From contig OZ252219.1 in NCBI GenBank assembly GCA_965249105.1, positions 633,262-697,261 on the forward strand: DNA of 64,000 bases, given 5' to 3'. Source of the DNA: Vicinamibacterales bacterium (GTDB taxonomy: Bacteria > Acidobacteriota > Vicinamibacteria > Vicinamibacterales > UBA8438). Made by a program: the position numbers and the translations under genes. Of this stretch, positions 291-55,068 are shown piece after piece (position 1 is the stretch's first letter; each line of letters opens with the position of its first letter). The notes under the pieces are model-generated. The model was not told the origin of the DNA. It saw nothing but the letters and a program-made list of their open reading frames with translations, and made no database searches.

Positions 291-406
291 GCCGCGTCCC
301 CGTAAGTCGTTGCGACCGCGAGAGTCGCATCCCGGGGGTCATCCCGGCTTATCCCGGCTTATCCCGGGATTAAAACTTTTGATCGACCTCACTTGCGCGC
401 TCCAGC
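291..406 (+). repeat. Iteron-bearing dispersed repeat, copy 1
   Basis: GTAAGTCGTTGCGACCGCGAGAGTCGC + 4x ATCCCGG-like units + TAAAACTTTTGATCGAC; shares a distal extension (CTCAC..GCGCGCTCCAGC) with copy 2. Confidence 0.9.
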
Positions 407-504
407 GTGGTCCCTCGAAACCGGCTTGCAGGAGCAGGTTTCAAACCACCTCAAGCTGCTGTCGTCAAGAGCGATGGTGGTGAGCGTTGAGGAAAAGGCC
501 GGAC

Positions 505-700
505 GCGATCCGGTCATCGTCCGCATGCGGTACCATCAGCCGACCGTCGACTACGTGGCTCGCCGCACGGCAAACGGGCGGACGAAGCGCGATATCATTC
601 GGTGTCTCAAACGCTTCCTCGCCCAGCGCGTGATGACCGACTTCCGCGCTCGCGAAAACGTCACACAGTCTAGAACTTTGTCTTGACATATAGGGGCGTC
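505..700 (+). pseudogene. IS110-family transposase C-terminal fragment and probable right end
   Basis: IVRMRYHQPTVDYVARRTANGRTKRDIIRCLKRF resembles IS110 C-termini; followed by CTTGACATATAGGGGCGTC, resembling IS110 ends. Confidence 0.7.
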
Positions 701-770
701 AATGCCGGCGACCAGGCAGAACCTATCTCCGCACCAGACGCACAGGGGACTTGCCGACTCGCTCACCTAT

Positions 771-1918
771 TGTGTGAGGTCAAACCATTGTGGACCGTTT
801 GAAGGTGTGAGATAAGAGAGACTTTGTTGCCTGGGGAGGAGGTCCCCATGAGCCAAGCAAAGTCAGCAGAGAAGGTTGTTCAGGACATCCGACGCAAGAC
901 GCGACGCCAGTTTTCCGCCGAAGAGAAGATCCGGATTGTCCTCGAGGGGATGCGGGGCGAGGAAAGCATCGCGGCGCTGTGTCGCCGCGAAGGCCTGAAC
1001 TCGAATCTCTACTACCGCTGGAGCAAAGAGTTTCTCGAAGCCGGCAAGAAGCGGCTCGTCGGGGACACGACTCGGGAGGCGACGTCGACGGAAGTCACGG
1101 ACCTTCGACAAGAGAATGGCCGCCTCAAGCACGTCGTGGCCGAGCTCGTGCTGGAGAATCGGCTACTCAAAAAAAGTGTAACGGCTTCCGACTCGGAGGG
1201 CGGTACGTGAGACGGACCGCGACCGAGAAGTACGCGATCATCCGGCTCGTCGAAGGCTCGGATCTGTCCGTGCGGCACACCTTGCGAGAACTCCAGGTGA
1301 ATCGGTCGACGTTCTACGCATGGTATCGCCGGTACACCGAGCGCGGCCGGGCGGGGCTCCACCCGAAGCCGTCGGCCGCGCGCCGCTACTGGAACCGGAT
1401 TCCGCCGCGGGTGCGCCAGCGGGTCGTCACGGCCGCGCTGGCGGATCCGGAGCGGTCGCCGCGGGAGCTGGCGTGGCAGCTGACGGACCGGGAGGGCCAT
1501 TTTCTCTCGGAATCGAGTGTCTATCGCATTCTCAAGACGTACGACCTCATCCCCAGTCCGGCCTTCATCGTGCTCTCGGCAGCGAAGACCTTTTCGCATC
1601 CGACGCATCGGCCGAATGAGCTCTGGCAGACCGACTTCACCTACCTCCAGGTCGTGGGCTGGGGGTGGTACTACCTCTCGACCGTCCTTGATGATTTCTC
1701 GCGCTACATCGTGGCCTGGACGTTGCGGACGTCGATGCAGGCCTCGGACGTGACCGAGACACTCGACCTGGCTCGGGCGAAGACCGGCGTCGACCAGGTG
1801 CGCGTGGTGCATCGGCCGCGGCTGCTCAGTGACAACGGTCCGTGCTACGTCTCGCAGGAGCTGGCGACCTATCTGGAGACCCACGGAATCGGGCATACGC
1901 GCGGTGCGCCGTATCCCC
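771..1918 (+). mobile_element. IS3-family element, 3'-truncated (orfA ~848-1210, orfB from 1207)
   Basis: orfA HTH (RRQFSAEEKIRIVLEG), A7G motif near 1169, orfB rve core (WQTDFTY...SDNG) breaking off at GAPYPQ before the catalytic Glu. Confidence 0.85.
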
Positions 1919-2004
1919 AAGGCGGCCCTCGGCGATCTAGCCGGCTGGGAACAAATATGGTACAAAACCCAGCGCCACCCTGACCAATCTCAGGAGATCC
2001 GACC

Positions 2005-4194: not shown

Positions 4195-4195
4195 G

Positions 4196-5232: not shown

Positions 5233-5256
5233 ACTAGGGGACGGAGACTCGGACGG

Positions 5257-15988: not shown

Positions 15989-17761
15989 TCATCGGCCCTC
16001 GCCTTCCGTGAGCCACGTGTATTGGTCGATGGGCACGTCACGCCACTCCTCGACCCGTCCGCTCGGCCACATGACGCGAACGTCCGGTGCGTTCGCCTGC
16101 TCGCCGAGGCCGACGAGCACCCGCGGATCGTTCGCCGAGGCGTAGCTCCCATCCGCTCGAGCCCGGCGCCACAGTGTCGAGCCATCCGACCGAAGAACCG
16201 CCACCCGCGCACCGAGCATGTCCCGGGCCGGGCGTCCGCCGACGAGTCGCAACCCGATCCAGTGGTGCCGGGTGCCGATGTCGTTGACGAGGAGTCGAAC
16301 CGGGCCCTCCGCGTTGGCGATCACGACGTCGGTATCGCCGTCGTTGTCGATATCGCCAAACGCCGCCCCGCGGCTCACCTCGGACCGCTCGAACGCCGCG
16401 CCGGCGAGGCCGGTGACGTCCTCGAACGTCTGCCCGCTCAGATTGCGGAGTAACAGATTGGGCTGCTGCATCGGGAACGGGTTATCGGGTCCCAGCGCGT
16501 CGTAGTTCTGGATCACGGAGCCGTTCACCTCCAGGATGTCGAGCCACCCATCGTTGTCAAAATCAATCCAGCCCGCGCCGAACCCCGTAAACGGGAGGCT
16601 GGCGAGCCGGAGACCGAGCGGGCCGCTCCGTTCTTCGAACGCTCCGGTGCCGTCGTTGACGTACAGCGTGCTGCCCTCTCCGGTAAACTCGGTGATGACG
16701 AGGTCCTCGTCGCCGTCGTTGTCGAAGTCGCCGGCGTCGACTCCCATGTCGGCATTGCGCTCACCGGAGGCAGCCAGCGCCGTGCCCGCCGAAAGCGCCA
16801 GGTCGCGGAACGTACCGTCCTGCTGGTTGAGCCAGAGCTGGTTTTCCTGCATGTCGTTGGCGACAAAGACATCGGTCCAGCCGTCGCCGTCGAAGTCGGC
16901 GGTCGCAATGCCGAGTCCCGGCCCAAATGTGGCCGCCAGTCCCGCGTCGACCGTCACATCGACGAATGTCCCATCCCCACGATTGCGATACAGCCGGTCG
17001 GGCTGGGCGCGATATTGCTGGGGCCGGCAATAGTCCCGACTGCCTGACTCGCTGTAACAGGGCACGTCCTGATCGATGTCGTAGACGAGGTAGTTGCCGA
17101 CGAAGAGATCGAGCCAGCCATCGCGGTCGACATCGAGGAGCGCCGCCGGCACGCTCCAGCTCGGGTCCGCCGTGCCGCTCGCCTGCGACACGTCGGTGAA
17201 CGTGCCGTCGCAGTTGTTGCGATACAGCTGGTTCGGTCCGTAGTGGGTCAGATACAGATCCACGCACCCGTCGTTCGTGAGGTCGCCCGCCGCGACACCC
17301 ATCCCGTAGCCTCGGGCATCGATGCCACTCGCGTCGGTCACGTCGGTGAAGCGCAAGGCGTCGGGACCGGCTGCCGAACCCAACTCATTCCGGTAGAGAC
17401 GCCCCGTGAGCGGGACGGGCGACGGCGGCGCGCCGCGAGCATCCGGCGTGACGGGCGCGCCCAGCCTCTGCCCTTGGACCAGGTACACGTCGAGGTCGCC
17501 GTCGTTGTCGTAGTCGAAGAGCGCGGCGCCGGGACCCAGGATCTCGGGCTGATAGAAACGCCCCGACCGGCCGGTCGTGTGGACAAAATCGAGCCCGGCG
17601 GCCTGAGCCCGATCGACGAACCATGCCGGTTCGGCGGTCTCGACGTCGGCTGGTTCAGCCACGCTGGATGTCGGTGGATCGGTCGTGCCCCCGGCACAGC
17701 CCCCGACTCCGGACGCCGCCACGCAGAACGCCCAAGCGATCGGGCCCCTGCGTCTACACAC
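15989..17761 (-). CDS. CRTAC1-family FG-GAP/ASPIC-UnbV protein, copy C
   Basis: DYDNDGDLD-type repeats; C-terminal GARV...GSYAS...GLG...WPSG. Confidence 0.92.
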   Translation of the reverse strand: MCRRRGPIAWAFCVAASGVGGCAGGTTDPPTSSVAEPADVETAEPAWFVDRAQAAGLDFVHTTGRSGRFYQPEILGPGAALFDYDNDGDLDVYLVQGQRLGAPVTPDARGAPPSPVPLTGRLYRNELGSAAGPDALRFTDVTDASGIDARGYGMGVAAGDLTNDGCVDLYLTHYGPNQLYRNNCDGTFTDVSQASGTADPSWSVPAALLDVDRDGWLDLFVGNYLVYDIDQDVPCYSESGSRDYCRPQQYRAQPDRLYRNRGDGTFVDVTVDAGLAATFGPGLGIATADFDGDGWTDVFVANDMQENQLWLNQQDGTFRDLALSAGTALAASGERNADMGVDAGDFDNDGDEDLVITEFTGEGSTLYVNDGTGAFEERSGPLGLRLASLPFTGFGAGWIDFDNDGWLDILEVNGSVIQNYDALGPDNPFPMQQPNLLLRNLSGQTFEDVTGLAGAAFERSEVSRGAAFGDIDNDGDTDVVIANAEGPVRLLVNDIGTRHHWIGLRLVGGRPARDMLGARVAVLRSDGSTLWRRARADGSYASANDPRVLVGLGEQANAPDVRVMWPSGRVEEWRDVPIDQYTWLTEGEGR

Positions 17762-17805: not shown

Positions 17806-19194
17806 TTATCGGTCACCGATGCCCTTCTGCAGACTCAGCACGGCCTCGACGACATCCTGCAAGGCGGTGAGCTCCGGCTCGTCGACGTGGATTCGCCGTG
17901 CCGCCACGAGCCAGTCACGGGCCTCCTGGTAACGCTCGAGACCGATGAGGACGTTCGCCCGCTCTTTCCACCCGTCGACATGCCGGGGGTCGAGCTCGAC
18001 GACGCGGCGGTACGGCTCGAGCGAGTCCTCGGGGCGTCCCAACGCCTCGAGGCTAAGGGCCAGCCCCATGTGCGCCTCCACGTGATTTGAATTGTGCCGA
18101 ACGGCAAGGGCAAAGCGGGACGCCGCCTCCTCAGGTCGCTCCTGCCGGGCGAAGATCACCCCCAAGCTGTAGTGGGCTTGCGCGTACGTCGGCGACTGCC
18201 GGACGACGGCTTCGAACTCCGCGATCGCGGCGTCGGTCTCGCCCATCCGACCCAGCGCCAACGCCCGCTGATGCCGAAGCGCGAGGTTCTCTGGCTCCAG
18301 CTCCAGCCCTTTGTGGAACAGCGCCGCCGCCTCGGCCCATCCTCCGGCTTGGAACGCTGCCCACCCACGCCTCTGATACGCCTGGCCGCTTTCCAGCAGC
18401 CTGTCGTATTCGTTCATGAGCGGGTCGGACAGCGTCGGTTTGCCATCCCCGCGCTGCTGCAGATGCGCGTCCGTGTTGTTCGGTTCCCCGAGACCCCGGT
18501 ACGCCATCGCCAGCGGGTAGTGCAGGCTCGTTGCCTCGGGCTCGAGCGTCAACGCCCGCGTCAGTAGCTCCACCGCCTGCGCATGGTCACGTCGAGCGAG
18601 GGCCACATGGCCCCGGCCGGCCAGGGCCACAGCCGAGCGGGGATCGTGGTCGAGCGCTTGCTGAAAGAGCACCTGTGCGTCGTCGAGTCGACCCTGATCG
18701 ACATACAGCCCAGCGAGACGGATGAGGATCGGGACGTCGGCGGGGCGCAGCTCGAGCGCGCGTTCGAATAACGCTATCGCCCGCGCGTGCTCGCTCCGGT
18801 AATTGTGGAAGTGGCCGAGATAGTAGGGCCAGCGTGGATCGTGCGGCGCGACCGCCTGGGCGTTACGGAGACTGGACAGCGCCGCGGTGTCGTAGTCGGC
18901 CGCCATCAGAATGAGGCCGAGATCCCCATGGGCGCGACCGAGCTCGTCGGCGGGCGTCTCGGGGCGATCGATCCGCGTCAGCGCGGTGTGGCGCTCGCGG
19001 ACCTGGTCGCGCACCGACTCGGACAATCGGGACAGATCCGGAAGCGTGACGGGCCTCACCTCGCGGGGGCTCTCTCCTTCGGCGTCGCGGGATGCCGGGC
19101 GCGTCGCTCCCGCATCGTCCGGAGGGGCACACGCGCTCACGCCGGCAACGAGCAGTCCGGTCAGCACGACGCGGGCGATCGAGGGGACGCTCAT
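17806..19194 (-). CDS. TPR-repeat putative lipoprotein, copy B
   Basis: VSAC lipobox-like motif; multiple TPR helices. Confidence 0.9.
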   Translation of the reverse strand: MSVPSIARVVLTGLLVAGVSACAPPDDAGATRPASRDAEGESPREVRPVTLPDLSRLSESVRDQVRERHTALTRIDRPETPADELGRAHGDLGLILMAADYDTAALSSLRNAQAVAPHDPRWPYYLGHFHNYRSEHARAIALFERALELRPADVPILIRLAGLYVDQGRLDDAQVLFQQALDHDPRSAVALAGRGHVALARRDHAQAVELLTRALTLEPEATSLHYPLAMAYRGLGEPNNTDAHLQQRGDGKPTLSDPLMNEYDRLLESGQAYQRRGWAAFQAGGWAEAAALFHKGLELEPENLALRHQRALALGRMGETDAAIAEFEAVVRQSPTYAQAHYSLGVIFARQERPEEAASRFALAVRHNSNHVEAHMGLALSLEALGRPEDSLEPYRRVVELDPRHVDGWKERANVLIGLERYQEARDWLVAARRIHVDEPELTALQDVVEAVLSLQKGIGDR

Positions 19195-33859: not shown

Positions 33860-34458
33860 GTCGGGTAGACCAGGGTCGTTGCTGACCCTGGCCCCCCACA
33901 GATCCGGACGTGCGGGTTCTGCCGCATCCGGCTCCTCGACAGATGGCTTCGCTACGCGCCGTCGCGTACCCGTTGGTCCAGGAAGCCAGGCGATGGCCAC
34001 CGCCATCCCCAAGGCTTGTCTGGCCAGTTCGGCTATCCGTTGTCGTGACGTGGAGACGGGACCCAACCTCGGTGTGTTGGCCGTCTTTCCCTCCACCGGT
34101 GCCACCTGCCGGTGCCCCCTTCCCTCCACGGGGTCTCGTGGGCTCAATTCCCCCGCTTCGGCGGTACTATGAGACACTCCGACTCCTCGCCGTCCATCCC
34201 CCCGCGCTTCGTTGCCTTCGCCCGGCGGTACCATCCGAGCACCTGCGGCTTCGCTCCGTCGGACGCCAGGTGCTGCGTCCACGGCCTCGGGCTTGGTGAG
34301 CCGGTGCCCGCCCCCCGGCGGTCTTTAAGATGGAGACGACGAGGCCTCCCGGGTTCCCGGGAAACCCACCCGCACGCATGCCACGCGCTCCGACCCCGGC
34401 GAGGTCGCCGCCTCCACGGCCTCTGAGATGCGGCGAGATAGCCTTCCGTCCAACGCAC
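33860..34458 (-). mobile_element. Group II intron relic, RT ORF deleted, domain I truncated
   Basis: Domain V GAGCCGGATGCGGCAGAACCCGCACGTCCGGATCT; domain VI ending CTACCCGAC; domain III-like GAGTCGGAG..CATAGTACC..GGAGGGAAGGG. Confidence 0.85.
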
Positions 34459-34459
34459 G

Positions 34460-34758
34460 TGTCAATGGCAACCGAAAACCGCACATTTGTGGCAACCGAA
34501 AACTGCACACTTCTGGGGAGGACGTCTCGGGCGGAGCGGACATTCTCCCGGTGATGCCCGACGGGAAGCTGCGGAGCCGGCGGTCACGTGGCGACTCCCT
34601 CACGCTGTTCGTCCGACGCTGTCCTCAGCCAGTGCTGATGCTCCCGCATCCGGTAGCTGTTGCCCCGGATGTTGACGATGTGGCAATGGTGCAGCAGCCG
34701 GTCGATGAGCGCCGCCGCCATAACCTCGTCGCCGAGCACGTGTCCCCATTCCTCGAAG
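34460..34758 (-). mobile_element. istB: IS21-family right end with istB 3' fragment
   Basis: FEEWGHVLGDEVMAAALIDRLLHHCHIVNIRGNSYR; TGT terminus with tandem GGCAACCGAAAAC repeats. Confidence 0.88.
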
Positions 34759-34887
34759 GCTGGAGCGCGCACAGTGAGGTCGATCAAAAGTTTTAATCCG
34801 GGATAAGCCGGGATCATCCGGGATGACCCCGGGATGCGACTCTCGCGGTCGCAACGACTTACGGGGACGCGGCGGCCCCAGCGGGGG
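34759..34887 (-). repeat. Iteron-bearing dispersed repeat, copy 2
   Basis: Reverse complement of copies 1 and 7. Confidence 0.9.
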
Positions 34888-35329
34888 ACGCCCGCGCGAG
34901 TCGGCATCCCACCGATCCCGGGTTATCCCGGCGAGGGTGCGGCCCACTGATCTTGATGGCCGTTCGTTACCAGCAGGTCGCGCCTGACGGCCTTCAGTCC
35001 GATCAAGCCTACGCGACGTCGGGATATTGTGGGACATAGTCGGGATCCATCCACATTCGACTGTTGTTCGCCCACGACGCACGGGGCGAGAATCGCGGGG
35101 AGACGGGTTCGCGCGAGACTGCCCCCTCCGCCATGTTTCTTCTTTGGACACAGGTAGTTAGCGATAGAATTTGTCCCCAGCATATTTGCGTCCTGGACGC
35201 CGCTACAAGGCCAGGTGCAAACGGATTGCAAACTCCAACTCAGCCACGACCTAGGGGCACCGCCCTGTTTACTTCCTACACGTCCAGAGGGTTCTCGTTG
35301 GGGGACCAGGAGCGACTGCAGCAGGTCGT

Positions 35330-35510
35330 GGACGCTCAACAACCAGCTTCAACTGCCCAGTGCGATCGAGCTCCAATTGAGTTACATCTACTACGCTGAG
35401 CGCAACGTGCCTCAGGGCAGGGAGAAGGCTCGTTCTTCGGTCGACCTCGCTGCCACGTGGCCGCTGATGGACGAGCGCGCCGAGCTCCTGTTCACCTTCA
35501 CTGACATGAA
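35330..35510 (+). pseudogene. Outer-membrane beta-barrel (TonB receptor-like) fragment
   Basis: NNQLQLPSAIELQLSYIYYAERNVPQGREKARSSVDL...ELLFTFTDM shows an amphipathic strand pattern. Confidence 0.5.
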
Positions 35511-35595
35511 TCTTACGGGATCGGAACTCTGCCACCAGCCCCGCCTTGACACGACCCAAGAGGCCAGATTGCTACGGGGCGGGCGAGCGCGAGTG

Positions 35596-35850
35596 GACGC
35601 CTGCTTATCATCCGGCCCCGCGCGGCGCGGCGGCAGAGTGTCCACGACGGGGGACACTCCCGCGAAATCCCCCCCATGTTGAGGGTCTCAAACCCCCGGA
35701 AAACGCCATGTGAAGGCAATTTCATGGATCAAAAGTTTTGCACCACAATTCTGTCGGCCGATCCCCGTAAGTCGTTGCGTCCGCGCGAGTCGCATCCCGG
35801 GGGCATCCCGGATGATCCCGGATTATCCCGGATTAAAACTTTTGATCGAC
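35596..35850 (+). repeat. Iteron-bearing dispersed repeat, copy 3 (~250 bp, inverted relative to 44755-45004)
   Basis: GACGCCTGCTTATCATCCGG...GTAAGTCGTTGCG...TAAAACTTTTGATCGAC. Confidence 0.9.
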
Positions 35851-35892
35851 ATCACCCGAACGCTGCAAGGTCGCTAGCCACCTTAGCTTCTT

Positions 35893-36468: not shown

Positions 36469-36487
36469 GCGATCAGCGTAGCACGGG

Positions 36488-37722
36488 CGTACTGTCCAAG
36501 TATTCGATCGGCGCAGCTTGACTGGCTGATTCTAGCGTGAAGGCCGCCAGGTTGCGGCATTCGAGACCGCCGTGGGCCTCTGGTAGGCTCGCCCGGTATG
36601 TCGCCATTTCCACAAGTGTTTCAGTTCCTTATCGTGGCCGTCGCGGGCTGGATCAACCAGCAGCAGCGTGACGTCATCGACTATCTCCAGGAGGAGAATC
36701 GCGTCCTCCGGGAGCAGCTCGGCCCCGGCCGGCTGCGGTTCACGGACTCCCAGCGCCGACGGCTAGCCGCGAAGGCCAAGAGCCTCGGTCGACAGGCGCT
36801 TCAAGACCTCGAGACACTCGTCGGCCCAGACACCTTGCTGCGTTGGCATCGACAACTGATCGCGAGGAAATACAATGGCAGCGGCCGGCGCGGACCGGGT
36901 CGTCCACGGATCATGGGCGAGATCCGCCGGCTCATCGTCCGGATGGCCACCGAGAACCGCGACTGGGGCTACACGCGCATCCGGGGTGCCCTCGACAACC
37001 TCGGGCATCACGTGGCGCGGGGCACCATTGCCAATGTGCTCAAGGCGCACGGGCTGGAACCCGCGCCAGAACGCAAGAAGCGCGGGACCTGGCGGGAGTT
37101 TCTGGTGGCCCACTGGGACGTCCTCGCCGCCGCCGACTTCTTCACCATCGAGGTCTGGACGCCACGCGGCCTGACCCGCTTCACGGTCCTGGTCCTGATT
37201 CATCTGGCCAGCCGGCGCGTCCAGATCGCCGGTATCAGCGCCCAGCCCGACGGTCCCTGGGTCACCCAACTCCTGCGAAACGCGACCGACGTCGAAGACG
37301 GATTCCTCCGGAACATGCGGTTCCTCATTCATGACCGCGACCCGCTCTTCCGTCCGGCCATGCGCGACCCGCTCCCGCCGGCCGGGGTCACGCCCGTCCG
37401 ACTCCCGGCCCGCTCGCCAAACTTGAACGCCTATGCGGAGCGCTTCGTGCGGACCATCAAGGAATCCTGCCTCGAGCGGATGGTGCTCATCGGCGAGGGC
37501 TCGCTGCGTCGCGCCGTCCGCGAGTTCGTCGCCCACTACCACCACGAGCGGAATCACCAGGGCCTGGACAACCGCCTGATCCATCCGCCGCCGACCGCAA
37601 CACCGCCCCGCGGCCCCGTCCAGTGCCGTCAGCGCCTCGGGGGCATGCTGAACTACTACTATCGGTCAGCGGCGTGATACCTGACCGCCACCACGCCCAC
37701 GATCGTGTTTTTGGACACTACG
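36488..37722 (+). mobile_element. Unclassified IS with rve integrase-core transposase (36598-37677)
   Basis: [35 protein letters not shown]; IRs CGTACTGTCCAA/TTGGACACTACG. Confidence 0.88.
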
Positions 37723-37725
37723 GGA

Positions 37726-37964
37726 TGGCGGAGGGGGCAATCTCGCGCGAACCCGTCTCGCACGTCGCCAAGCGAATAAAAGACGAATATTTGATGGGTC
37801 CCTACTATGTCCCGCTTCAAACTCCTTGACCGGCTCAGGGGGAGTGTCTTGGCGGGCAGCGTCGGTACCTCCGCATCGGAGGATAGTTGTTGTCCTCGCG
37901 CGAGTCGCATCCCGGGGTCATCCCGGATTATCCCGGCTTATCCCGGATTAAAACTTTTGATCGA
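37726..37964 (+). repeat. Iteron-bearing dispersed repeat, copy 4 (~240 bp, inverted relative to 54035-54265)
   Basis: TGGCGGAGGGGGCAATCTCGCGCGAACCCGTCTC...GAGTCGCATCCCGG...TAAAACTTTTGATCGA. Confidence 0.9.
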
Positions 37965-38012
37965 GCTCAGCGGATTATGTTCCGCGCTTTCGCCACCCCG
38001 TGCTCCAGATAA

Positions 38013-39444
38013 GAGTGTGAGCGAAACTTAGTTGGAAATTGAAGCGGCTCCAAACCCTGTGGTTTGATGACGTTTGAGAAGACGGACATCAGCCCACGAG
38101 AGAAAGGAGCCGAGATGAGCAGTGTCCTACGATCGGTCAGGAAGCGCAAGAAAGGTCACACGTTGGGCGCGGTCGACGTCATCGACCGCGAGGAGTACGC
38201 CGAGCTGGAGGTCGATGCCAAGGTGGCGTTGATCCGGTCGTTGGTTCCGCTGGGCTTGATGCACATCGAGGAGTTGCTCGACGAGGAAGTGACCGCGCTG
38301 GCTGGCGAGCGCTACGCCCGCAAAGCCCCGTCAGTCGGCGGGCGCCGTCATGGCAGCAACCCCGGGACGGTCGGGTTGGCCGGCCAGCGCGTGCCGATTC
38401 GCGTGCCCCGGATTCGCCATGTCACGGAGCGCGAGATTCCCCTGCGGTCGTACGAGGCGCTGCATGGCGATCGCGCAGTCAACGACCTGTTGCTGAGGCG
38501 CGTGCTGTATGGGATCTCGTGCCGCAACTACGCGGCGGCCGCCGAGGCGATTCCCAGGGCGATCGGCCTATCGGGGTCGACGGTGTCCCGCGCGTTCATT
38601 CAGGCCAGCGCGACGAAACTCCGCGAGCTCCAGGAGCGGGACCTCTCCGGGGAGGACGTCGTGGCCCTCGTGCTGGACGGCAAGACGTTCGCCGAGGCGA
38701 CGATGGTCGTCGCGCTGGGCATCACGATGACGGGGGACAAACGGTTCCTGGGCGTCGTCGAGACGGACACGGAGACCGAGAAGGTGTTGACCCCGTTCCT
38801 CCGGTCATTGGTCGAGCGGGGCCTCGATGTCTCCCAGGGGCTTCTGGTGATCGTGGATGGCGGCAAGGGGCTCCGGGCGGCCGTGCGGAAAGCCTTCCGC
38901 CACCGCGCCCTGGTGCAACGGTGTCAGTGGCACACGCGCGAGAACGTGGTGAGTTACGTGGCCAAGCGTGAGCAGCCGGTGTGGCGGCAGCGTCTCCAGC
39001 GCGCCTACAACCGTCCGGAGTACGACGAGGCCCTCGCCGCCCTCAAGTCGCTCCAGCATGAGCTGGAGGATCGGAACCAATCCGCGGCCGGCAGTCTGGC
39101 GGAAGGCCTCGACGAGACCCTGACGTTGCATCGCCTCGGGGTGTACGGTGTGCTGGGCCGGTCGCTGAAGACGACGAACAGCCTCGAGTCCATCAACGCG
39201 CTCATTGAGGAGCGCTGTGCGAAGGTCGATCACTGGCAGAACTCGAGTCAACGCCATCGCTGGCTGGCCACTGCGCTCCTGGACATCGAGCCACGCCTGC
39301 GCAAGGTGATGGGCTACCGGCACCTGCCCAGGCTTCGTGACGCATTGAAGCGAGAGCTGAAGATCGACACGACGACGTCGACGAAGAAAGCCGCGTAAGC
39401 AATCAGGAGCCGCGGAGAGTTTCAACTAGGAATGGGCTTGACTC
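38013..39444 (+). mobile_element. IS256-family element, 1432 bp; transposase ends at 39398
   Basis: LVLDG, IVDGGKGL, QRCQWH, TTNSLES; 8-bp TSD CCAGATAA. Confidence 0.93.
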
Positions 39445-39696
39445 CCAGATAATGACGTAACAGCACACGTTTCTCCCGCATATACATAGGAGGCACTTGC
39501 AAAACTCCTGGCCGACAGTGGAACAAGCGTCAGGGTTTGGGTGCAAACTGGTCACTCGGGCCCAGGGCACCGGGATCGAGGCACCGATTCATGAGGAGAC
39601 GCAGGCCCGCCCGGGCATTGGGCGAGGGTCTGGCAAGAGCTGCCGCCTTCTGCGCGTAGGCAGCTGGGTGGATCGAGGTCATCACGTCACCGATGG

Positions 39697-40836
39697 CTAC
39701 GTGACGAGGCGCATGAGTTGGTCAGCGGTGAGTGCGAGCACGCCGAACATGCAGTGGCACATCACCTTCGCCGGGCCGCGGACCCGGACATGGCGACCGC
39801 CGAATTCGTCCTTGAGGCGGCCATTGACCCGCTCAACGGCCGTGCGTTCGTTGTAGCGAACGTCCTCCGGAAGCTGGAAGCCAAGCACCTGTCGGCGCCG
39901 AGCTTCCGCTTGGCGTTCTTCCTTCAGCGCCGTGTTGCGGCGCGTGTTGATGTCGATCAGCGGAACGTGGTTCAGCGAACGGCTGTGTGCCCGAATCTCC
40001 TGCGCATCGTAGGCGGCGTCCATCACGTCGTACAGATTGGTGCTCCGCTCGGCGGACAGGGTTGCGAGCGGAATAGCGGCCTGGCTGTCATGAAGGGAGG
40101 CAGCGGTCAGTAGGCAGCTGATGGGGATCTGGCCATCGGCCACATCGATATGCAGCTTGTAGCCGACCCAGGTTTCCTTGTAGCCCTTGCTGTTCTTTTT
40201 CGTCCCGACATCGCAGGCCGTCGGGAGATCAGCGAGCATCTCCGGCTTGGTCATGGTGCCCTGCCGCTGCAGACGCGTGGGCTCGTGAGGGCGCTCCTCT
40301 CCCTTCTTCGGTCGTCCCCGCTTCCGCTGCGAGGGCGCGGGCGGCTTGTCCTTCGTGGCGGGCTTCTCGCGTGCCGCAATCGCGGTGGAGTCTCGCGAGA
40401 GATGACCGACCAATCGGTCGTGATGCGTCTTCTGGATGACCGTCTCGTGCACGCGCAGAGGCAACTGCGTGGTCGCAAACTCGTCGAAGGCGTGTGAGAA
40501 CAAGGATTCGCTCGGGACCTGGCGCCTAGTCTCCCAGCCGCAGATCCGGCGCAAGGGTCGATCGGTGGCCAGCCGATCGAGCAGCCTGCGTGTCGTCGGC
40601 AGGTCGTAGACGGCCTTGGCGACAAACGCGCGGGCTACGGCCGCGCGATCCTTGCGAGGTCGGCCGGGCATGCGGACGCGTCGGGGAATGTGGTCCTCGA
40701 CCCGGATGACCTCCAAGGTCTGCACGAACTGCTGCTGTTTCTCCGTGAGTGGTCCCAGCTCTTCCTCCAGCCATGGAAAGAGTGCGGTCTGAATGGACAG
40801 CCAGTGTGGTGCGAAGCACTCTCGGAGACGGCTCAT
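39697..40836 (-). CDS. DDE transposase
   Basis: SRDSTAI, WVGYKLH, MDAAYD, RTAVERVNGRLK. Confidence 0.9.
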   Translation of the reverse strand: MSRLRECFAPHWLSIQTALFPWLEEELGPLTEKQQQFVQTLEVIRVEDHIPRRVRMPGRPRKDRAAVARAFVAKAVYDLPTTRRLLDRLATDRPLRRICGWETRRQVPSESLFSHAFDEFATTQLPLRVHETVIQKTHHDRLVGHLSRDSTAIAAREKPATKDKPPAPSQRKRGRPKKGEERPHEPTRLQRQGTMTKPEMLADLPTACDVGTKKNSKGYKETWVGYKLHIDVADGQIPISCLLTAASLHDSQAAIPLATLSAERSTNLYDVMDAAYDAQEIRAHSRSLNHVPLIDINTRRNTALKEERQAEARRRQVLGFQLPEDVRYNERTAVERVNGRLKDEFGGRHVRVRGPAKVMCHCMFGVLALTADQLMRLVT

Positions 40837-40899
40837 TTTCTTCTTGACTCCTGGGGCCAGGTCTAGCAGTATAACAACTGCTAGACCGAATGGCACGAC

Positions 40900-41247
40900 A
40901 TGCCCACCCGTGACCCAACAACCGACACGCAGCGCTACGACGCGCTCAAGCGCACCGTCGCTGAGGTGGGATTGCTTCGACGTGGCAGCCTCGTGCAACG
41001 TTTCATGCCGTGCGGCAAGCCGAACTGCCGCTGCCAAGCGACGCCCCCGCAGCTACACGGGCCGTACTATCAGTGGACCCGCAAGGTCCGCGGCAAGACC
41101 GTCACCGTCCGTCTCACCGAGCAGCAAGCCGAGCGTGTCCTGGACTGGATCGAGAACGGCCGACAGCTAGACCGAATCGTTGTGGAAATGGAGACGTTGT
41201 CGCTGCGGATGACTGAGCGCCTGCTTCGTCAGCTCACGCCTGTGTGA
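40900..41247 (+). CDS. DUF6788-like small Cys/His protein
   Basis: RGSLVQRFMPCGKPNCRC...HGPYYQWTRKVRGKTVT. Confidence 0.8.
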   Translation: MPTRDPTTDTQRYDALKRTVAEVGLLRRGSLVQRFMPCGKPNCRCQATPPQLHGPYYQWTRKVRGKTVTVRLTEQQAERVLDWIENGRQLDRIVVEMETLSLRMTERLLRQLTPV

Positions 41248-41369
41248 TGTGGCCCGCACCGTGCGCAAGCCGCCAAAAAACTTCTCTACGCGCAGGGTTT
41301 TGCAAGTGCCTCATAGGCGACTCCACTCTCGCGTGGTCGCCATGGGAAACGGCGGCAGTCGCCGCCGTC

Positions 41370-41425
41370 AACACGTGTGCAATTTTGGGCCGCCGGATCT
41401 GTGCAATTTACGCCCGCCGCTTACA
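41370..41425. mobile_element. Orphan IS21-like terminus
   Basis: 2x TGTGCAATTT..CCGCCG ending in TTACA. Confidence 0.55.
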
Positions 41426-41451
41426 CTCAATCGGGCTGACCTGCACCAGCT

Positions 41452-41559
41452 ATGGCCTTAACCGTCGGTTCCCACCTTGCCACTCGTATGACCGCTCTCA
41501 TCGGCGAAGGCGGCATGGGACAGGTCTATCAGGCTACTGAAAGCGTGCGTCACAAATGA
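41452..41559 (+). pseudogene. Ser/Thr kinase 5' stub 1 (35-aa ORF)
   Basis: MALTVGSHLATRMTALIGEGGMGQVYQATESVRHK*. Confidence 0.8.
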
Positions 41560-42236
41560 CCGTCACAGTGGTTCGGGTTTTCATCTTTTCGATCCTGCCG
41601 CTCTTGGTGGCAGGAGCACACGTTGCATTGGACAAGAGCGTGAGGTCCCGCGAACGTAGGCTGGAAGTCTTGCTTCTATACCTCTTTGCTCTTGGTGTCG
41701 CTGGAGGTGGCATTTCTGGCTTCTTCGGCCATCTTTTCCTCTCCGACTTTGTTGCCGAATCGATCGGTTGGCCGTCAGGCAATCCTTTTCAGCTGGAAGT
41801 GGGCTTCGCTAATCTGGCTGTTGGTAGTCTGGGGATCATGGCCATGGGACGGCGTGACGGCTTCCGCGAGGCCACAGTGATCGCAGTGGCCGTATTCGGC
41901 GTCGGGGCCACCATCGTCCACCTGATGGACATCGCCGAGACGGGCAACTTGGAGCCCGGCAATACGGTCCAAAACGTGAGTAATCTGCTCCGCCCGGCCC
42001 TTCTGATCGGATTCTTGGCTGCGAGCAGGTCAGCCGAACGGAAGCCGATCTCGGAAGCTGGGTCGTCAACGTTTGCGAAGTGGCGAGCGCCCAGGGTCCG
42101 GGCGGCCGGATGGATGACTGCGGGCGTTGCCACTGGATTTGGGATCGGGTTTGGTCTTGGCCAGCCTACGATCGGAACAACCCTCGGGATCGTGGCCGGA
42201 GCCGTCCTCGTTGTAGCTGCCCTGAGAGGAAGATAA
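41556..42236 (+). CDS. DUF6790-like membrane protein
   Basis: FFGHLF..DFVAESIGWPSGNPFQLEVGFANLA; multiple TM segments. Confidence 0.75.
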   Translation: MTVTVVRVFIFSILPLLVAGAHVALDKSVRSRERRLEVLLLYLFALGVAGGGISGFFGHLFLSDFVAESIGWPSGNPFQLEVGFANLAVGSLGIMAMGRRDGFREATVIAVAVFGVGATIVHLMDIAETGNLEPGNTVQNVSNLLRPALLIGFLAASRSAERKPISEAGSSTFAKWRAPRVRAAGWMTAGVATGFGIGFGLGQPTIGTTLGIVAGAVLVVAALRGR

Positions 42237-42331
42237 CCACCCTTTCGCCTCGCGGGAGCGGACGCAGCCTCGACGCGACAATCCATCTTAGAATGCTCCT
42301 GATCTGCGGTCGAGAGTTCCATCGCAGCCTC

Positions 42332-42510
42332 ATGTCCCTAAACATCGGCGACCGACTCGCCCATTACGACGTGACCGCCCTCATCGGCGAGGGCGGGATG
42401 GGGCAGGTGTATCAAGCCACCGATACCACGCTGAACCGCCAGGTGGCGCTGAAGATCCTGCCTGAGGCGTTTGCCGACGATCCTGATCGGCTGGCCCGGT
42501 TCCAGCGAGA
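42332..42510 (+). pseudogene. Ser/Thr kinase 5' stub 2
   Basis: MSLNIGDRLAHYDVTALIGEGGMGQVYQATDTTLNRQVALKILPEAFADDPDRLARFQRE. Confidence 0.9.
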
Positions 42511-42524
42511 GGGGTCCGTCAACA

Positions 42525-42559
42525 ACAGCCTCCGTCCTGCTGCGGAGGCTGTCTTTTTT
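42525..42559 (+). terminator. Rho-independent terminator-like hairpin
   Basis: 10-bp stem ACAGCCTCCG/CGGAGGCTGT followed by CTTTTTT. Confidence 0.6.
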
Positions 42560-42752
42560 GGGTACTGTCAAGTTCTCCATGTCTGCCGACACCATGACGC
42601 ATGAAACGCGATAGAGTGTGAGCGTGCATGGGTAGAGATGGGCATATGCCACACGTCAGCGGGAGTTGTAGTCGGACGGATGGAGGCGATAGAGTCCTTG
42701 ATCTCTGCTCTGGCGAGTTCTCAACGCTCAACAAGACTTGGAGGTTTCCGCC

Positions 42753-43727
42753 ATGCCTAACCAAATGCTCGTGACGGCTGTTGCCGCGGCCATGCTCGCG
42801 GGATGTGGGGCCGAGCCCGAGCCGCCCTCGCCCGAACCAGAAGCTTCGATGCCGGAAGCGGCTCCTTCCATGCCCACACCTGACCTCCCTCCGGCGATGA
42901 TCGTGGCGGAGCGAGGAGGCTTCATTCCGGAAGGTGTGGAGTACGACACCACGAACGGTCGCATTCTGGTTGGGTCGCTCTCCGAGGGCTCCATCTTTCA
43001 CATCCACAACGATGGCCAGGTGACGACCGTGGTGAGCGATCCCGATCTGGTCTCGTCAGTTGGCATCGAGGTCGACGAACCTCGAAATCGTCTACTGGTG
43101 GCGAACTCGGACCGGTCCGTGTTCCAGGGCGAAACGGCTGGGCAAGCGAAGCTAGGTGTGTACAACCTCACGACCGGGGAACGGGTTGCCATGGTGGACC
43201 TTGCCGCGGCCATCGTCGACGCTCCCAGTGACGCCGTCTACTTCGCGAACGACGTGGCGGTTGGGGAGGATGAAACGGCGTACGTCACCGATACACGGAT
43301 GGGCATGATCTACCAAGTCGACACCAACTACGAGGCCTCGGTGCTGCACCGATTCGATGACTTCGGACCCAACGGGATCGTCTATCACTCTTCGGGATAT
43401 CTCCTGGTGGGGGGCGGCGCAGCCCTTTGGAAGGTGCCGCTCGACGACCCGACTGGAGCCACCCAGGTGACGCTCCCGGAGGAGGTGCCAGGGCAGGACG
43501 GGATGGTGTGGACGGCTGATGAGCGCCTGGCCATCGTCAGCAATTCCGGTAACCGCGTGGTGGCGTTGACGAGTGAGGACAACTGGGCCACGGCACAGCT
43601 CGCAGGGGTCGCGCCATATGAGACTCAAGCGACGACCGCTGCAGTTGTCGGTGACGACATCTACGTGGTCCATCCACACTTCGCGGACGAGGATCCTCCG
43701 AGTGTCGAGCGCGTGGTGTTTCAGTGA
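42753..43727 (+). CDS. SMP-30/gluconolactonase-like beta-propeller lipoprotein
   Basis: LAGC lipobox; FIPEGVEYD, FANDVAV, GPNGI, GQDGM. Confidence 0.82.
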   Translation: MPNQMLVTAVAAAMLAGCGAEPEPPSPEPEASMPEAAPSMPTPDLPPAMIVAERGGFIPEGVEYDTTNGRILVGSLSEGSIFHIHNDGQVTTVVSDPDLVSSVGIEVDEPRNRLLVANSDRSVFQGETAGQAKLGVYNLTTGERVAMVDLAAAIVDAPSDAVYFANDVAVGEDETAYVTDTRMGMIYQVDTNYEASVLHRFDDFGPNGIVYHSSGYLLVGGGAALWKVPLDDPTGATQVTLPEEVPGQDGMVWTADERLAIVSNSGNRVVALTSEDNWATAQLAGVAPYETQATTAAVVGDDIYVVHPHFADEDPPSVERVVFQ

Positions 43728-43950
43728 GCCTGAAACGGCCGGGGGCGTGATGTGTGGCCAGTGTTCCGCTACGACAGTGGGTGGTTAACGGCGAGTCGTT
43801 AGTACGTCTGGTTCCAGGAACTCACCGAGGGCGTGCCCGGACCGTAGGCCGAGGGTCGCCAACTCATCTTGCATTGATCGAGGCCGGTCCCGTCCAACGC
43901 CAAGCTATGATTCGGCCTTAGCTATCCCGTCCACAGCCCAAGGGCGCCCA

Positions 43951-44238
43951 TCCCTCAATATCGGTGACCACCTCGCCCACTACAACGTCACGGCCCTCAT
44001 CGGCGAGGGCGGCATGGGCGTGGTCTACGAGGCCAGCGATCCGCGGCTCGAGCGCACGGTTGCCATCAAGCTCCTCCCGCCAGATCTGACGCGAGACGAG
44101 ACCGCCAAGCAGCGGTTCCTGCAGGAAGCCCAAGCGGCCTCGGCGTTGGACCACCCCAACATCTGCACCATCCACGAGATCAACGAGACCGACGACGGGC
44201 AACTCTCCACTTACGTTACCTCGCGGTCTGTCCACTAG
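43951..44238 (+). pseudogene. Ser/Thr kinase 5' stub 3 (start codon lost)
   Basis: SLNIGDHLAHYNVTALIGEGGMGVVY...VAIKLL...EAQAASALDHPNICTIHEI. Confidence 0.9.
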
Positions 44239-44289
44239 GATGCAGGCGGGGACGCCGAGACCAAGGCCCACTGGGGACCTGGAGCTGTG

Positions 44290-44754
44290 ATGAGATTCGG
44301 GGTGAGTCGCCACGCGCTGATACTCGCGCTCGTCTTGCTCTATACGGCGGGGTTCCGACTCGTCGTCCTCGACCGTCCCTTCGGCTACGACGCGGAAGGA
44401 GCCTCGGCCAGCCAGTACGGGATCCTGGCGAGGAACTACCTTCGGTTCGACTGGACCCAAACCCACGGCATGCCCGCCCTCACCGTCGGGCATCATCCGA
44501 CAGCACCGGTGGTTCTGTATCCCGATCACCCGCCCCTCATCCCACTGCTCGTCGCCCCGTTCTATGCGGGATTCGGCGTGGGTGAGTGGCAGACCCGGCT
44601 TCCGATTTCGATCATGACGATCGCGGCCGTGTATGTGCTGTATCGTCTGCTCGCCCTGACGGCCACGCGCCGCGCCGGCGTGGCGGCGGGCGCCGTGTTT
44701 GCGGCCAGCCCTTTGATCCTCTATTTCACCAGCGACCCACGGAGATCCCGGAAG
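44290..44754 (+). pseudogene. GT39/PMT-like membrane glycosyltransferase, N-terminal fragment
   Basis: YDAEG, YPDHPPL, FGVGEWQTRLP; ends at repeat copy 5. Confidence 0.75.
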
Positions 44755-45004
44755 GACCAAAAGTTTTAATCCGGGATAAGCCGGGATCATCCGGGATGAC
44801 CCCGGGATGCGACTCGCGCGGGCGCAACGACTTACGGGGATCGGCCGACATAATTGTGGTGCAACACTTTTGATCCATGAAATCGCCTTCACGGCGTTTG
44901 CCGGGGGTTTTGGCCCCTCAAAATTGGGGGGGGTCGCGGGAGTGTCCCCCGTCGTGGACAGCTCTGCCGCCGCGCCGCGCGCGGCCGGATGATAAGCAGG
45001 CGTC
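44755..45004 (-). repeat. Iteron-bearing dispersed repeat, copy 5
   Basis: Diverged inverted copy of 35596-35850. Confidence 0.9.
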
Positions 45005-45099
45005 TGGGGTATCCATTTAACCGGAGTAACCTGGGCACGCCTCTACGAGGCGGCGATTGCAGGAGTGCAAAAGGAAGGCATCCTGCGGTGCCGTTGCCG

Positions 45100-46570
45100 T
45101 CGGTTCCGCGTCATGGCCAACGTCGAGGAACTCGAACGGGCTCTCGATTTCCCCTGGGAGAAATGGACGGTCTTCCTTCATCCGGCCCAGCGGGAACTGG
45201 TCGAGCGTGACTACGAGGGTCCCGCACGGGTCGCGGGGTCCGCTGGCACGGGCAAGACGGTGGTAGCCCTCCATCGTGCTGCCTATCTGACCCGCAGCAA
45301 TCCCGCAGCCAGGGTTCTCCTCGCCACGTTCTCGGAAACGCTGGCGAACGCCCTCAAGAACCAATTGAAGTGCCTCGTCGGGAACGAACCCCGGCTGGCC
45401 GAACGCCTGGAAGTCTGGTCGATGACCGGCATCGGCAAACGGCTCTATGAGGCTCGGTTCGGGAAGCTAGACCTTGCGTCTGACGGCCGCGTGCGCCAAC
45501 TGCTCGAAGAGAAGGCTGCGACGGTCGAAGGACACAAGTTCAGCACGCGGTTCCTCTGGTCTGAATGGGCCAACACCGTGGACGCCTGGCAGCTGGCCAC
45601 CTGGGAGGACTACCGGGACGTGAAGCGTCTGGGCCGCAAGACACGGCTGGCACAAAGCCAGCGGACCATTCTGTGGGACATCTTCGAGAAGGTCCGCTCC
45701 GCCTTGAGCAGGGAGGGCGCAGTCACCAAGGCTGCGATGTTCACGGACCTCGCGGCGAAGCTTGGTGAATCTGATCACCCGCCGTTTGACTTTGCGGTGA
45801 TTGACGAGGCCCAGGACGTGGGCGTGGCTCAGCTACGCTTCCTCGCGGCCCTCGGGAGCAAGCGGCCGAATGGCTTGTTCTTCACTGGTGATCTGGGACA
45901 GCGGATCTTCCAAGAGCCGTTCTCGTGGGAGGCTCTTGGCGTGGATGTCCGGGGACGCTCGACGACGCTGAAGGTCAACTATCGAACCTCCCACCAAATC
46001 CGCACACAGGCGGATCGGCTGCTGGATCCAATGCTTGCAGACGTGGACGGTAACGAGGAGATCCGCACCGGGACGATCTCCGTCTTTAATGGGCCGACCC
46101 CAGAGATCCGCGTCTGCGATTCAGTAGAGGCCGAGACCCAGGCTGTCGCCGATTGGATCAAGCAGCGCCTCACAGAGGGCGTAGAGCCACACGAGATCGC
46201 GGTCTTCGTGCGATCTGGGGCTGAGCTACGACGGGCACAGGATGCTCTCGCCCGAGCGGACATCCCGCGTGAGACGCTGGACCAGAGGTTGAAGGTGACA
46301 AAGGGCTCGGTTTCCGTCACCACGATGCATCTGGCTAAGGGGCTGGAGTTCCGGGCCGTGGCGGTGATGGCCTGCGACGACGAGATCATTCCCTTGCAGG
46401 AGCGTATTGAAAACGTGGCGGACGAGTCCGACCTGAAGGAGGTCTACAGCACTGAGCAGCACTTGCTCTATGTTGCATGCACTCGGGCGCGGGACCATCT
46501 TCTCGTGACGGGCATCAGCCCGGCGTCAGAGTTCCTTGACGACCTGGAAGCCAAGGCTGCGGTGGCGTGA
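45100..46570 (+). pseudogene. UvrD/Rep-like SF1 helicase, probably missing its N-terminal domains
   Basis: GSAGTGKT, IDEAQD, GDLGQRI, NYRTS, TMHLAKGLEF, YVACTRAR; no convincing start codon or RBS. Confidence 0.8.
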
Positions 46571-51655: not shown

Positions 51656-51664
51656 GGCGCCCGG

Positions 51665-53933: not shown

Positions 53934-54019
53934 TGACAACAACTTATCCTCCGATGCGGAGGTACCGACGCTGCCCGCCAAGACACTCCCCCTGAGCCGG
54001 GGCGATGCGGTGACGGCCG

Positions 54020-54265
54020 GCTAGGCATGACCCAAGTTTTAATCCGGGATATTCCGGGATAATCCGGGATGACCCCGGGATGCGACTCGCGCGAGGACAA
54101 CAACTTATCCTCCGATGCGGAGGTACCGACGCTACCCGCCAAGACACTCCCCCTGAGCCGGTCAAGGAGTTTGAAGCGGGACATAGTAGGGACCCATCCA
54201 ATATTCGTCTTTTATTCGCTTGTCGACGTGCGAGACGGGTTCGCTCGAGACTGCCCCCACCGCCA
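54020..54265 (-). repeat. Iteron-bearing dispersed repeat, copy 6
   Basis: Inverted relative to copy 4; a 66-bp part is duplicated at 53935-54000. Confidence 0.9.
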
Positions 54266-54694
54266 CCCCGTCCTGCCGATGCTCGCACTTCGGGATCGCT
54301 CGAGGCTTGCCCTCGATTTCCTCGTTGGATTCAGGCGATTTCAGCGGTTACGGGCGCGGTGCCGGGGAGCTGAGTCGCGCCTGGGGCAAGGTGGCGGCCG
54401 GTGGCCGCGTGATCGTCTCGTGAGCCAGGTTCGGTGGTCCGGGGTTTTGAGAGAGCCATGTACGACTGACTCCTGTCAGTCGTCGGGTCCGCGGAGCGTC
54501 GGATTCCGGGATGGAGCCCGGCAAGTCCCGGAATATGCCGCTTCAAGAACTTCTCGCGGCGCGGCGGCCGAGCCCACGTCACAGAAACTGACCATGACGC
54601 GCGGCGCGCGTGGACCTGCACCGGCAGGTGCAACGTGGCGTCCCGGCGCTGGACTCGGCGTCAGTCGTTGAGCCCACAGAGCGTCGGATACCGG

Positions 54695-54900
54695 GATGGA
54701 TCCTTGCCACCGCCCACAAGCTGGTGCGCGTGATCCACGCCGTGCTGCACGACCGACCGTACACCGACCCGGGCATCGACGACGAACGCCTCGTCGTCGA
54801 GCGCAACGCGCCACGCTGGATCCGCCGCTCCGCGCCGTCGCGGCGGACGCGCGGCCGCCGGATCGCGACCTTCCGCCCACCCAGCACCACCTGACTGGGG
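54695..54900. pseudogene. IS110-like (+) and IS256-like (-) transposase scraps
   Basis: ATAHKLVRVIHAVLHDRPYTDPGID; VVLGGRKVAIRRPRVR. Confidence 0.55.
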
Positions 54901-54953
54901 GCCATCGACGACTGCATCGTCGGTGACGTTGTAGAGCCGCACCCGGCCCACCG

Positions 54954-55068
54954 ACCCCCGCTGGGGCCGCCGCGTCCCCGTACGTCGTTGCGACCGCGAG
55001 AGTCGCATCCCGGGGTCATCCCGGATGATCCCGGCTTATCCCGGATTAAAACTTGGGTCATGCCTAGC
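54954..55068 (+). repeat. Iteron-bearing dispersed repeat, copy 7
   Basis: Ends TAAAACTTGGGTCATGCCTAGC, the exact inverse of the copy 6 terminus. Confidence 0.9.

Follow-up and report, generated by a model that had tools for sequence, protein, structure and literature searches.

Dispersed iteron-bearing repeats in a Vicinamibacterales genome: probable ends of a lineage-specific, MITE-like family of non-coding transposons

In bacteria, MITEs, short for miniature inverted-repeat transposable elements, are small and non-coding, carry terminal inverted repeats (TIRs), reach high copy numbers and form sub-families in which common ends enclose different interiors. Among other mobile elements, Mu, Tn7, Tn402/Tn5053 and IS21 have TG...CA tips and several subterminal repeats of ~19-22 bp per end, leave 4-8-bp target site duplications (TSDs) and encode their own transposase and ATPase, and replicative members of the Mu/Tn7/Tn402/IS21 type cause adjacent deletions and inversions. 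Here we analyse a repeat found in a 64,000-nucleotide stretch (the window) of the genome of a Vicinamibacterales bacterium (assembly GCA_965249105.1, contig OZ252219.1), a single contig of 6.11 Mb with 63.6% G+C in which the window occupies positions 633262-697261. A sequence-only reading of the window had described seven copies of a dispersed core with 10-bp iterons. We consider it probable that this core is the conserved subterminal block of the long TIRs (100-120 bp) of a lineage-specific, MITE-like family of non-coding transposons. The family behaves like a non-autonomous DNA transposon with multi-site ends, and it matches none of the named insertion sequence (IS) families tried, whether judged by TSD, parent IS or end sequence.

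The evidence for this reading comes mainly from the way in which the repeat recurs throughout the genome. Cores form outward-facing inverted pairs, with an inner gap of 417-421 bp in 12 cases and of 594-596 bp in 8 cases. Seven aligned units of family B (~627 bp) and eight of family A (~810 bp) have near-identical interiors and diverge abruptly outside their tips, and they are therefore MITE-like units with long inverted ends. Each family is represented at 7-8 or more sites, and its flanks differ from site to site. The core represents the conserved inner part of the TIR, which is arranged from outside to inside as follows:

tip (ancestral form 5'-TG-N5)
17-bp imperfect palindrome, GATCAAAAGTTTTAATC
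four ATCCCGG iterons
GCGACTC
CGCAACGACTTAC
interchangeable inner arm

The iteron array is closed by the 17-bp imperfect palindrome (GATTAAAACTTTTGATC). At its other side, the conserved block has the inner edge (CCCC)GTAAGTCGTTGCG, where it joins at least nine arms genome-wide, some of them pieces of other genes or ISs; one pair encloses a 516-bp IS21 fragment. As a separate observation, the sequence that precedes the iterons, GAGAGTCGCATC, agrees with the reverse-complemented ancestral tip, GTGAGGTCGATC, in ~10 of 13 positions (window 302-391, and in all copies), and the iteron array itself is therefore flanked by a short inverted repeat. Two mini-units of 111 bp (2965556-2965666) and 66 bp (4489059-4489124) were also noted, in which two tails are joined via AAAAC or the iterons and nearly all of the interior is deleted.

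A BLASTN search with window positions 291-390 as the query, a check already suggested with the sequence-only reading, returned 204 matches in the genome, 182 of which span at least 40 nt, corresponding to ~200 ends. These matches are confined to a few IS-dense regions (0.42, 0.63-1.67, 2.79-3.04, 4.42-4.49, 4.83-4.88 and 5.28 Mb). Among 40 relatives, five had a BLAST match, with 1-6 matches each. A 24-mer covering the palindrome and the first iteron occurs 69 times in the genome of the window (G000) and once each in the comparison genomes G001 and G004, and it is absent from the 58 others among the 60 other genomes of the family. An exact 25-mer was found in four stretches of three records among species representatives. 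A collection of plasmids held no match to the core, and a metagenome scan gave a single match, by chance, inside a LysM-type gene. The expansion of the family is limited to this genome. Parts of window 41400-45400 are contained in public runs labelled as sponge, seawater and sediment metagenomes, as well as in three organism runs; sponge-metagenome-labelled runs contain a third of that interval. Contigs from four of the public runs are short and break at the repeat, and none spans the junction at 44758 by 31 letters. The IS load of the genome is very high in general, with ~45 near-identical IS256-like copies, 61 matches to IS200-type Y1 genes (46 at top score), 12 matches to IS91, 15 to IS110 and 13 copies of a 1208-bp IS481-like IS. 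Several IS21, IS30, IS3/IS481, IS5, IS630 and IS1-like families and a group II intron reverse transcriptase (RT) are present as well.

The outer ends of the elements were located by sorting 136 anchored matches according to the sequence past AAAAC, the motif on the outer side of the iterons; the pattern overlapped, such that some sites were counted twice. The resulting tail classes, with the number of matches at no more than three mismatches, are:

T1, TTTTGATCGACCTCACTGTGCGCGCTCCAG, 30
T2, TTTTGATCGAGCTCAGCGGATTATGTTCCG, 38
T3a-d, TTGGGTCATGCCTAG followed by 13-17 bp, 34 (8, 10, 14 and 2)
T4, TTTTGTGACGATACGTGTGCCACCTCTGAG, 23
T5 (a/b) and T6, 6 and 3

Each class is conserved to a sharp point, after which every copy is different. 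The point of divergence has its main peak 30-35 bp past AAAAC, a few chance matches making this distance somewhat too long; a minor group lies at 13-21 bp, and within one class, the tips are ragged by 1-3 bp. Minor-group copies end in ...GATCGAnnTCA, 15 bp past AAAAC, and have different flanks. The tip TG-N5-GATCAAAAG is also found in diverged copies of G004 and G001, at a site that has an empty paralogue, and in divergent subfamilies whose iterons differ, for example CCGAGATA. Judged from these sequence comparisons, TG-N5-GATCAAAAG, 15 bp out, is the ancestral terminus, and most copies have an alternative tip ~30 bp out. TG...CA termini belong to the ancestral tip only and not to the extended tips T1-T6. 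The repeat had earlier been taken to terminate at TAAAACTT, but once the copies are aligned, the true sharp tips lie 15 or ~30 bp farther outward, beyond AAAAC.

Several of the extended tips can be traced to other sequences. The T3 tails derive from an IS1595-like element, whose first 26-30 bp they comprise. One intact copy of this element (4489095-4489830) lies within a T1-type end and is flanked by the 8-bp duplication TAAAACTT; elsewhere the IS stands between other flanks, in one case with the duplication ATCCTTTT. The T5b tail consists of target DNA from a repeat with five copies, and in two copies it has been cut 18 or 23 bp away from the ancestral tip. So at least some extended tips are foreign DNA. 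Such foreign-derived tails have multiplied, and they stop as far from AAAAC as T1 and T2 do. Furthermore, family-A copies are 97-99% identical inside, yet carry T2, T3a or T6 at the same end. The mover may either tolerate any tip sequence or measure distance from the iteron block.

Two further readings were considered and dropped. An origin of the T1 tail GTGCGCGCTCCAG as a group II intron 5' end, suggested by the intron piece that Rfam places directly after copy 1, is unsupported, since that piece (407-512) is internal and occurs as a single copy in the genome. The 937-bp repeat that begins TGTAGGCGATCAAAAG and is present five times belongs to a tail-fibre-like gene, of which it is the 3' part. 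These five ~937-bp repeats (1330868, 4777288, 5296164, 2442570 and 1300134; L048) are 85-92% identical and begin TGTAGGCGATCAAAAGTAATGAAACCTCGGATCAAAACTCTGCACC, and the TG-N5-GATCAAAAG motif of the element tips is present in them as well.

The sites at which the elements stand were compared for marks of insertion. Among 27 adjacent tip pairs, none has a direct repeat of 4 bp or longer, the best being 3 bp in two pairs. Because recombination could split the two copies of a duplication, identity to reverse-complemented flanks was also scored among 146 tips, and no excess over three controls was found (for n=6, 107 matches vs 129, 112 and 155; for n=8, 6 vs 11, 11 and 9; the test has little power for n<=5). 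The flanks of 42 tips recur elsewhere in the genome, and for 31 flanks with an uninterrupted paralogue, the missing half was never found beside another tip. Usually, the sequences on either side of an element are truncated and unrelated to each other, as in the family-B copy at 979433-980059, where they come from different ISs. The comparison of filled and empty sites yielded one paralogous empty site within the genome: for the copy at 422350, a 92%-identical paralogous locus without the insert shows that ~66 bp of target, in a signal-peptide region, has been replaced by ~650 bp starting with the TG tip. This insert is itself one-ended, and a second locus matches it at 100% identity over 561 bp. 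Unrelated flanks and loss of target sequence would account for the broken genes. No empty site was found for the copy at genome 4424116, the flanks of which are absent from 10 congeners.

A 2.9-kb segment that is 99.8% identical between G000 (2937446-2940378) and G040 (L009 8438-11370), a comparison genome of another family, has inward-facing tips at both ends in either genome. It encodes a 504-aa protein of no Pfam family, with a C-terminal hydrophobic stretch, and a helix-turn-helix/S24 repressor. Other tips truncate the G040 copy and a second G000 copy at different points, and the identity across two families implies recent horizontal transfer. Taken together, the insertion marks are those of ends joined to new DNA, with neighbouring DNA lost or inverted. 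Such marks are known from adjacent deletions made by replicative elements, including Mu, IS1 and IS26.

We propose that the iterons and the palindrome would act as multiple binding sites for a transposase supplied in trans, comparable to the several sites in the ends of Mu, Tn7, Tn402 and IS21. This enzyme would probably be of the DDE type because of the TG...CA tips, and it would move the elements mainly by intramolecular, replicative or otherwise TSD-free events. In each event, a tip may become fused to new DNA while the DNA between is deleted or inverted, which would explain why genes are broken on the TAAAAC side, why the elements cluster in IS-rich regions and why reciprocal junctions are lacking. 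Arms and tails may be reassorted by recombination inside the conserved core.

Several observations weigh against a DDE-type transposon of this kind. A classical DDE insertion is expected to leave a TSD in some copies, and none was seen. The commonest tips, T1 (...CTCCAG) and T2 (...GTTCCG), do not finish in CA. Unrelated tip sequences, some from another IS, lie at a near-constant 28-35 bp from AAAAC, which is not expected of an ordinary sequence-specific end. Finally, neither a cognate transposase nor an autonomous copy was found in the genome, and all open reading frames (ORFs) between paired ends belong to IS256-, IS21-, IS5-, IS6- or IS481-like ISs with their own ends.

The search for an enzyme compared 1669 ORFs of the IS-rich regions by family, with Pfam applied to 20 family representatives. 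No complete element was seen among the related loci examined. The genome has no PF01526 match for a Tn3-family transposase, and the tips do not start with GGGG. TniB gave a single marginal match, outside the islands. No rve-type transposase with an AAA+ partner was found for these ends, the IstA/IstB genes of the genome standing only inside ISs with their own ends. Individual candidates were also set aside. IS481-like transposases (window 36598-37677, and four 1346-bp T5a units) lie on varying sides of the core, with their own TGTG... end fused to a truncated arm. Beside the '3/5' arm, a Y1-domain ORF of 402 aa is a chimera of an IS200 fragment and an unrelated gene end. The IS6-like IS and the IS21 found between two cores have their own GGTATTGTCA and TGTCAAGGGCGGAG... 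ends, respectively.

The constancy of tip distance leads to a different explanation, in which a molecular ruler would define the ends: a complex assembled on the four iterons and the 17-bp palindrome would cut or join ~15 or ~30 bp out, whatever the sequence, so that intervening foreign DNA, for instance another IS's end, would become the new tip and integration would proceed with target loss and no TSD. We regard such a ruler as unlikely. In the form of a distance rule, where an enzyme on the iteron/palindrome block cuts outside it and the products are joined without target duplication, for example by end joining, the explanation is also an unlikely one. Nevertheless, much of the tip pattern is in its favour. 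At least 10 unrelated tail classes end at 28-35 bp, beside the minor group, and the chimeric T3 ends have multiplied with different flanks (T3a, T3b and T3c), while the T5b cut in target DNA, the ragged tips and the target deletion at the empty site are all as such a rule would have them. A Ku gene is present in the genome. On the other hand, no such nuclease was identified, and the TG...CA ancestral tip, kept across divergent subfamilies, points to a sequence-specific end of the DDE type. The independent classes are few (about 10-15), and each could have arisen once, in a rare event, and then spread in the ordinary way, provided that the transposase tolerates changes of the tip.

It is improbable that the core is mainly a passive insertion or recombination hotspot, a preferred target of several ISs whose copies would spread as passengers only. 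The core is certainly a target of other elements: IS-G, an IS of the IS5/IS1182 type with 4-bp duplications, sits in the last iteron in 16 of 21 paired copies, in both orientations, and 14 of these 16 have CCGG on both sides; the other five copies have unrelated 4-bp duplications. This preference of IS-G for the CCGG of the last iteron is striking, and IS1595-, IS256-, IS21- and IS6-like insertions also lie in or beside the core. The earlier suggestion of a recombination hotspot is borne out to this extent. However, inverted-pair units recur as wholes, identical inside, at 7-8 or more sites between different flanks; the sequences past the tips are not the ends of one element; and a passive target would leave unexplained ~200 copies in one genome against 0-6 BLAST matches in each of 40 relatives.

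The sequence-only reading had also proposed that the core may be an end, or an att site, of a non-autonomous element not described before. Inverted pairs, recurrent units and sharp tips support the first part of this proposal, whereas an att-type site of a site-specific recombinase, with the iterons as arm-type sites and the palindrome as the crossover region, is quite improbable. Phased short direct repeats beside a dyad-symmetric site do resemble the arm sites of lambda-type attP, the lack of a TSD would suit such a site, and in three copies the core is preceded, at a distance of ~184 bp, by the end of a large-serine-recombinase gene that lacks its 5' part (Pfam Recombinase only). But this gene exists only as fragments, the tyrosine-integrase matches beside tips are C-terminal pieces, and the intact integrase genes elsewhere are unlinked to cores. 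The flanks are not a conserved attB, the junctions lie 15-30 bp outside the palindrome, and the ends come as inverted pairs. Lastly, a structured single-strand element or RNA (a hairpin end of the repetitive extragenic palindrome or IS200 type, an attC-like site, or a non-coding or guide RNA) is highly improbable: IS200-type Y1 genes are abundant and such elements leave no TSD, but no Rfam match was found at the cores (window at gathering score; 34600-38100 at E<=1), the only Rfam matches being two group II intron pieces outside them; four ends of 121-125 nt folded as single strands gave z-scores of -0.3 to -1.3; and long inverted repeats at both ends are unlike IS200/IS605.

Within the window, the seven copies are real. 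The exact 14-mer GAGTCGCATCCCGG matches at 322+, 34829-, 35787+, 37902+, 44802-, 54075- and 55000+, against an expectation by simple arithmetic of ~0.0005 in 128 kb (both strands). Matches with up to three mismatches carry no such weight (18 found vs 17.1 expected in the shuffle control), hence only the exact ones are used. Each exact match is the centre of 74-100 aligned bases of 85-100% identity in the BLAST search, at genome positions 633552, 668134, 669023, 671158, 678101, 687368 and 688230. As had been stated, copies stand in both orientations, with more than one inner arm and outer tail, and the iterons have a 10-bp phase: in most copies, successive ATCCCGG motifs start at intervals of 11, 10 and 10 bp, and in copy 1, with one additional G, the intervals are 12, 10 and 10 bp. 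The three inner arms named at that time are present in the window but belong to the larger genome-wide set, and what copies 1, 2 and 7 have in common beside the core is only ~14-31 bp. The seven copies are not independent, since they make up two complete inverted pairs, one half element and two solo ends. They and their neighbours are listed here in window coordinates:

1..410, +: right half of a ~815-bp family-A element, copy 1 (genome 632857-633671); left end 300-400 bp before the window
302-376, +: copy 1 anatomy, with inner boundary GTAAGTCG at 302, GAGTCGC at 322, iterons at 329-367 and AAAAC at 372-376
391 and 410, +: copy 1 tips, the ancestral CA tip at 391 and the extended tip (T1 variant ...CTCCAGCGTGG) at 410
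34458..34758, -: final 301 bp (istB 3' end) of an IS21-like element, fused with copy 2 at its T1 tip
34760..35872: complete 1113-bp element, copies 2 and 3
34760, -: copy 2, T1 tip at 34760, AAAAC end at 34790
35872, +: copy 3, AAAAC end at 35839, ancestral tip at 35854, T5b tip at 35872
37720..37984, +: solo end, copy 4, arm '4/6', with GAGTCGC at 37902, AAAAC end at 37954 and T2 tip ...GTTCCG at 37984
38013..39444, +: IS256-like IS (Transposase_mut), 28 bp past the copy 4 tip; a neighbour, not part of the element
39490..41312, -: IS-G, 1823-bp IS with a DDE_Tnp_1/DUF772 transposase and inverted repeat GAGGCACTTGCAAAAC; TSD ATAG here
44758..45003, -: solo end, copy 5, arm '3/5', AAAAC end at 44763; tail cut 5 bp past AAAAC and fused to a PMT_2 gene fragment
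54008..55084: complete 1077-bp element, copies 6 and 7
54008, -: copy 6, T3b tip at 54008
55084, +: copy 7, T3c-like tip at 55084; a truncated amidohydrolase starts directly past the tip

The broken genes that the sequence-only reading had placed on the TAAAAC side are all found there. Besides the IS21-like istB end, they comprise the PMT_2 (GT39-type) gene, cut after profile position 68 of 160, and the Amidohydro_3 gene, which begins at profile position 232 of 472 (both by Pfam); copy 1 adjoins an internal piece of a group II intron (Rfam RF01999, 407-519), followed by an IS110-type C-terminal fragment. The absence of a visible cognate enzyme and TSD, also reported before, still holds after the genome-wide search. 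No Pfam domain was found in the inner ORF scanned (34603-35151) of the 1113-bp element, a further scanned ORF (35896-36468) being located beyond its limits; the ORFs over the elements resemble GC-rich spurious frames, the Pfam scan covering this one ORF of a window element.

Other features of the window were recorded in passing. Group II intron fragments lie at 407-519 (+, RF01999) and 33860-33936 (-, RF00029), and intron RT genes are found elsewhere as a five-member ORF family. Three tandem paralogous genes of ~590 aa, ~3.2 kb apart on the minus strand (ORFs 15989-17761, 19191-20981 and 22368-24125), share GAGTCGCAACCCGA (window 16244, 19446 and 22623) and are unrelated to the repeat.

No mention of this element was found in those parts of the literature on Acidobacteria insertion sequences and MITEs and on Vicinamibacter transposases that were available to us. 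Judged by this partial literature, Rfam and the sequence collections, with ISfinder outside the comparison, the family would be previously undescribed. If our reading is correct, it is a new bacterial family of non-autonomous transposons with unusual ends, in which four helically phased 10-bp repeats accompany a palindrome; it leaves no target duplication, so it stands outside the usual IS families. Its expansion in a single genome, in IS-dense regions of more than 1 Mb, would show that one element can drive gene truncation and rearrangement during IS expansion. The constant tip distance and the attraction of IS-G to one iteron offer testable handles on the recognition of ends and targets. A ruler, if real, would be a way of transposing or end-joining DNA that is not known from bacterial IS families; with an ordinary tip-tolerant transposase as the mover, the family would be a useful but ordinary addition to IS catalogues.

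Several known systems share part of this pattern. Lambda-like attP arm sites have tandem ~10-bp repeats, one helical turn each, beside a dyad-symmetric site; in contrast, the present ends lack a linked integrase and a conserved attB, and occur as inverted pairs in hundreds of copies. Pack-MULEs, hAT and CACTA elements likewise combine long TIRs containing short repeated motifs with variable interiors from captured fragments, but they are eukaryotic and make 8-11-bp duplications, and the IS256-like (Mutator-type) IS of this genome has unrelated ends. Mosaics of IS26/IS6 are similar in that copies lie between unrelated truncated genes, without flanking duplication, with adjacent deletions and with cargo units like composite transposons. 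IS26 itself is an autonomous 820-bp IS with 14-bp inverted repeats and 8-bp duplications, whereas no orphan 8-bp signal is seen here, and the IS6-like IS of this genome has ends unrelated to the repeat. With Mu, Tn7, Tn402/Tn5053 and IS21, the family shares the TG...CA tips (in their ancestral form) and the several subterminal repeats per end, but its repeats are of 10 bp, no such duplication was seen, no transposase with ATPase was found for it, and the IS21 copies of this genome have ends unlike the repeat. Compared with bacterial MITEs, it differs in having no TSD, no parent IS found, unusually long TIRs (100-120 bp) with four phased iterons, and alternative tips; on the other hand, small size (0.6-1.1 kb), apparently non-coding content, inverted ends, high copy number and sub-families with common ends but different interiors are features that it has in common with them.

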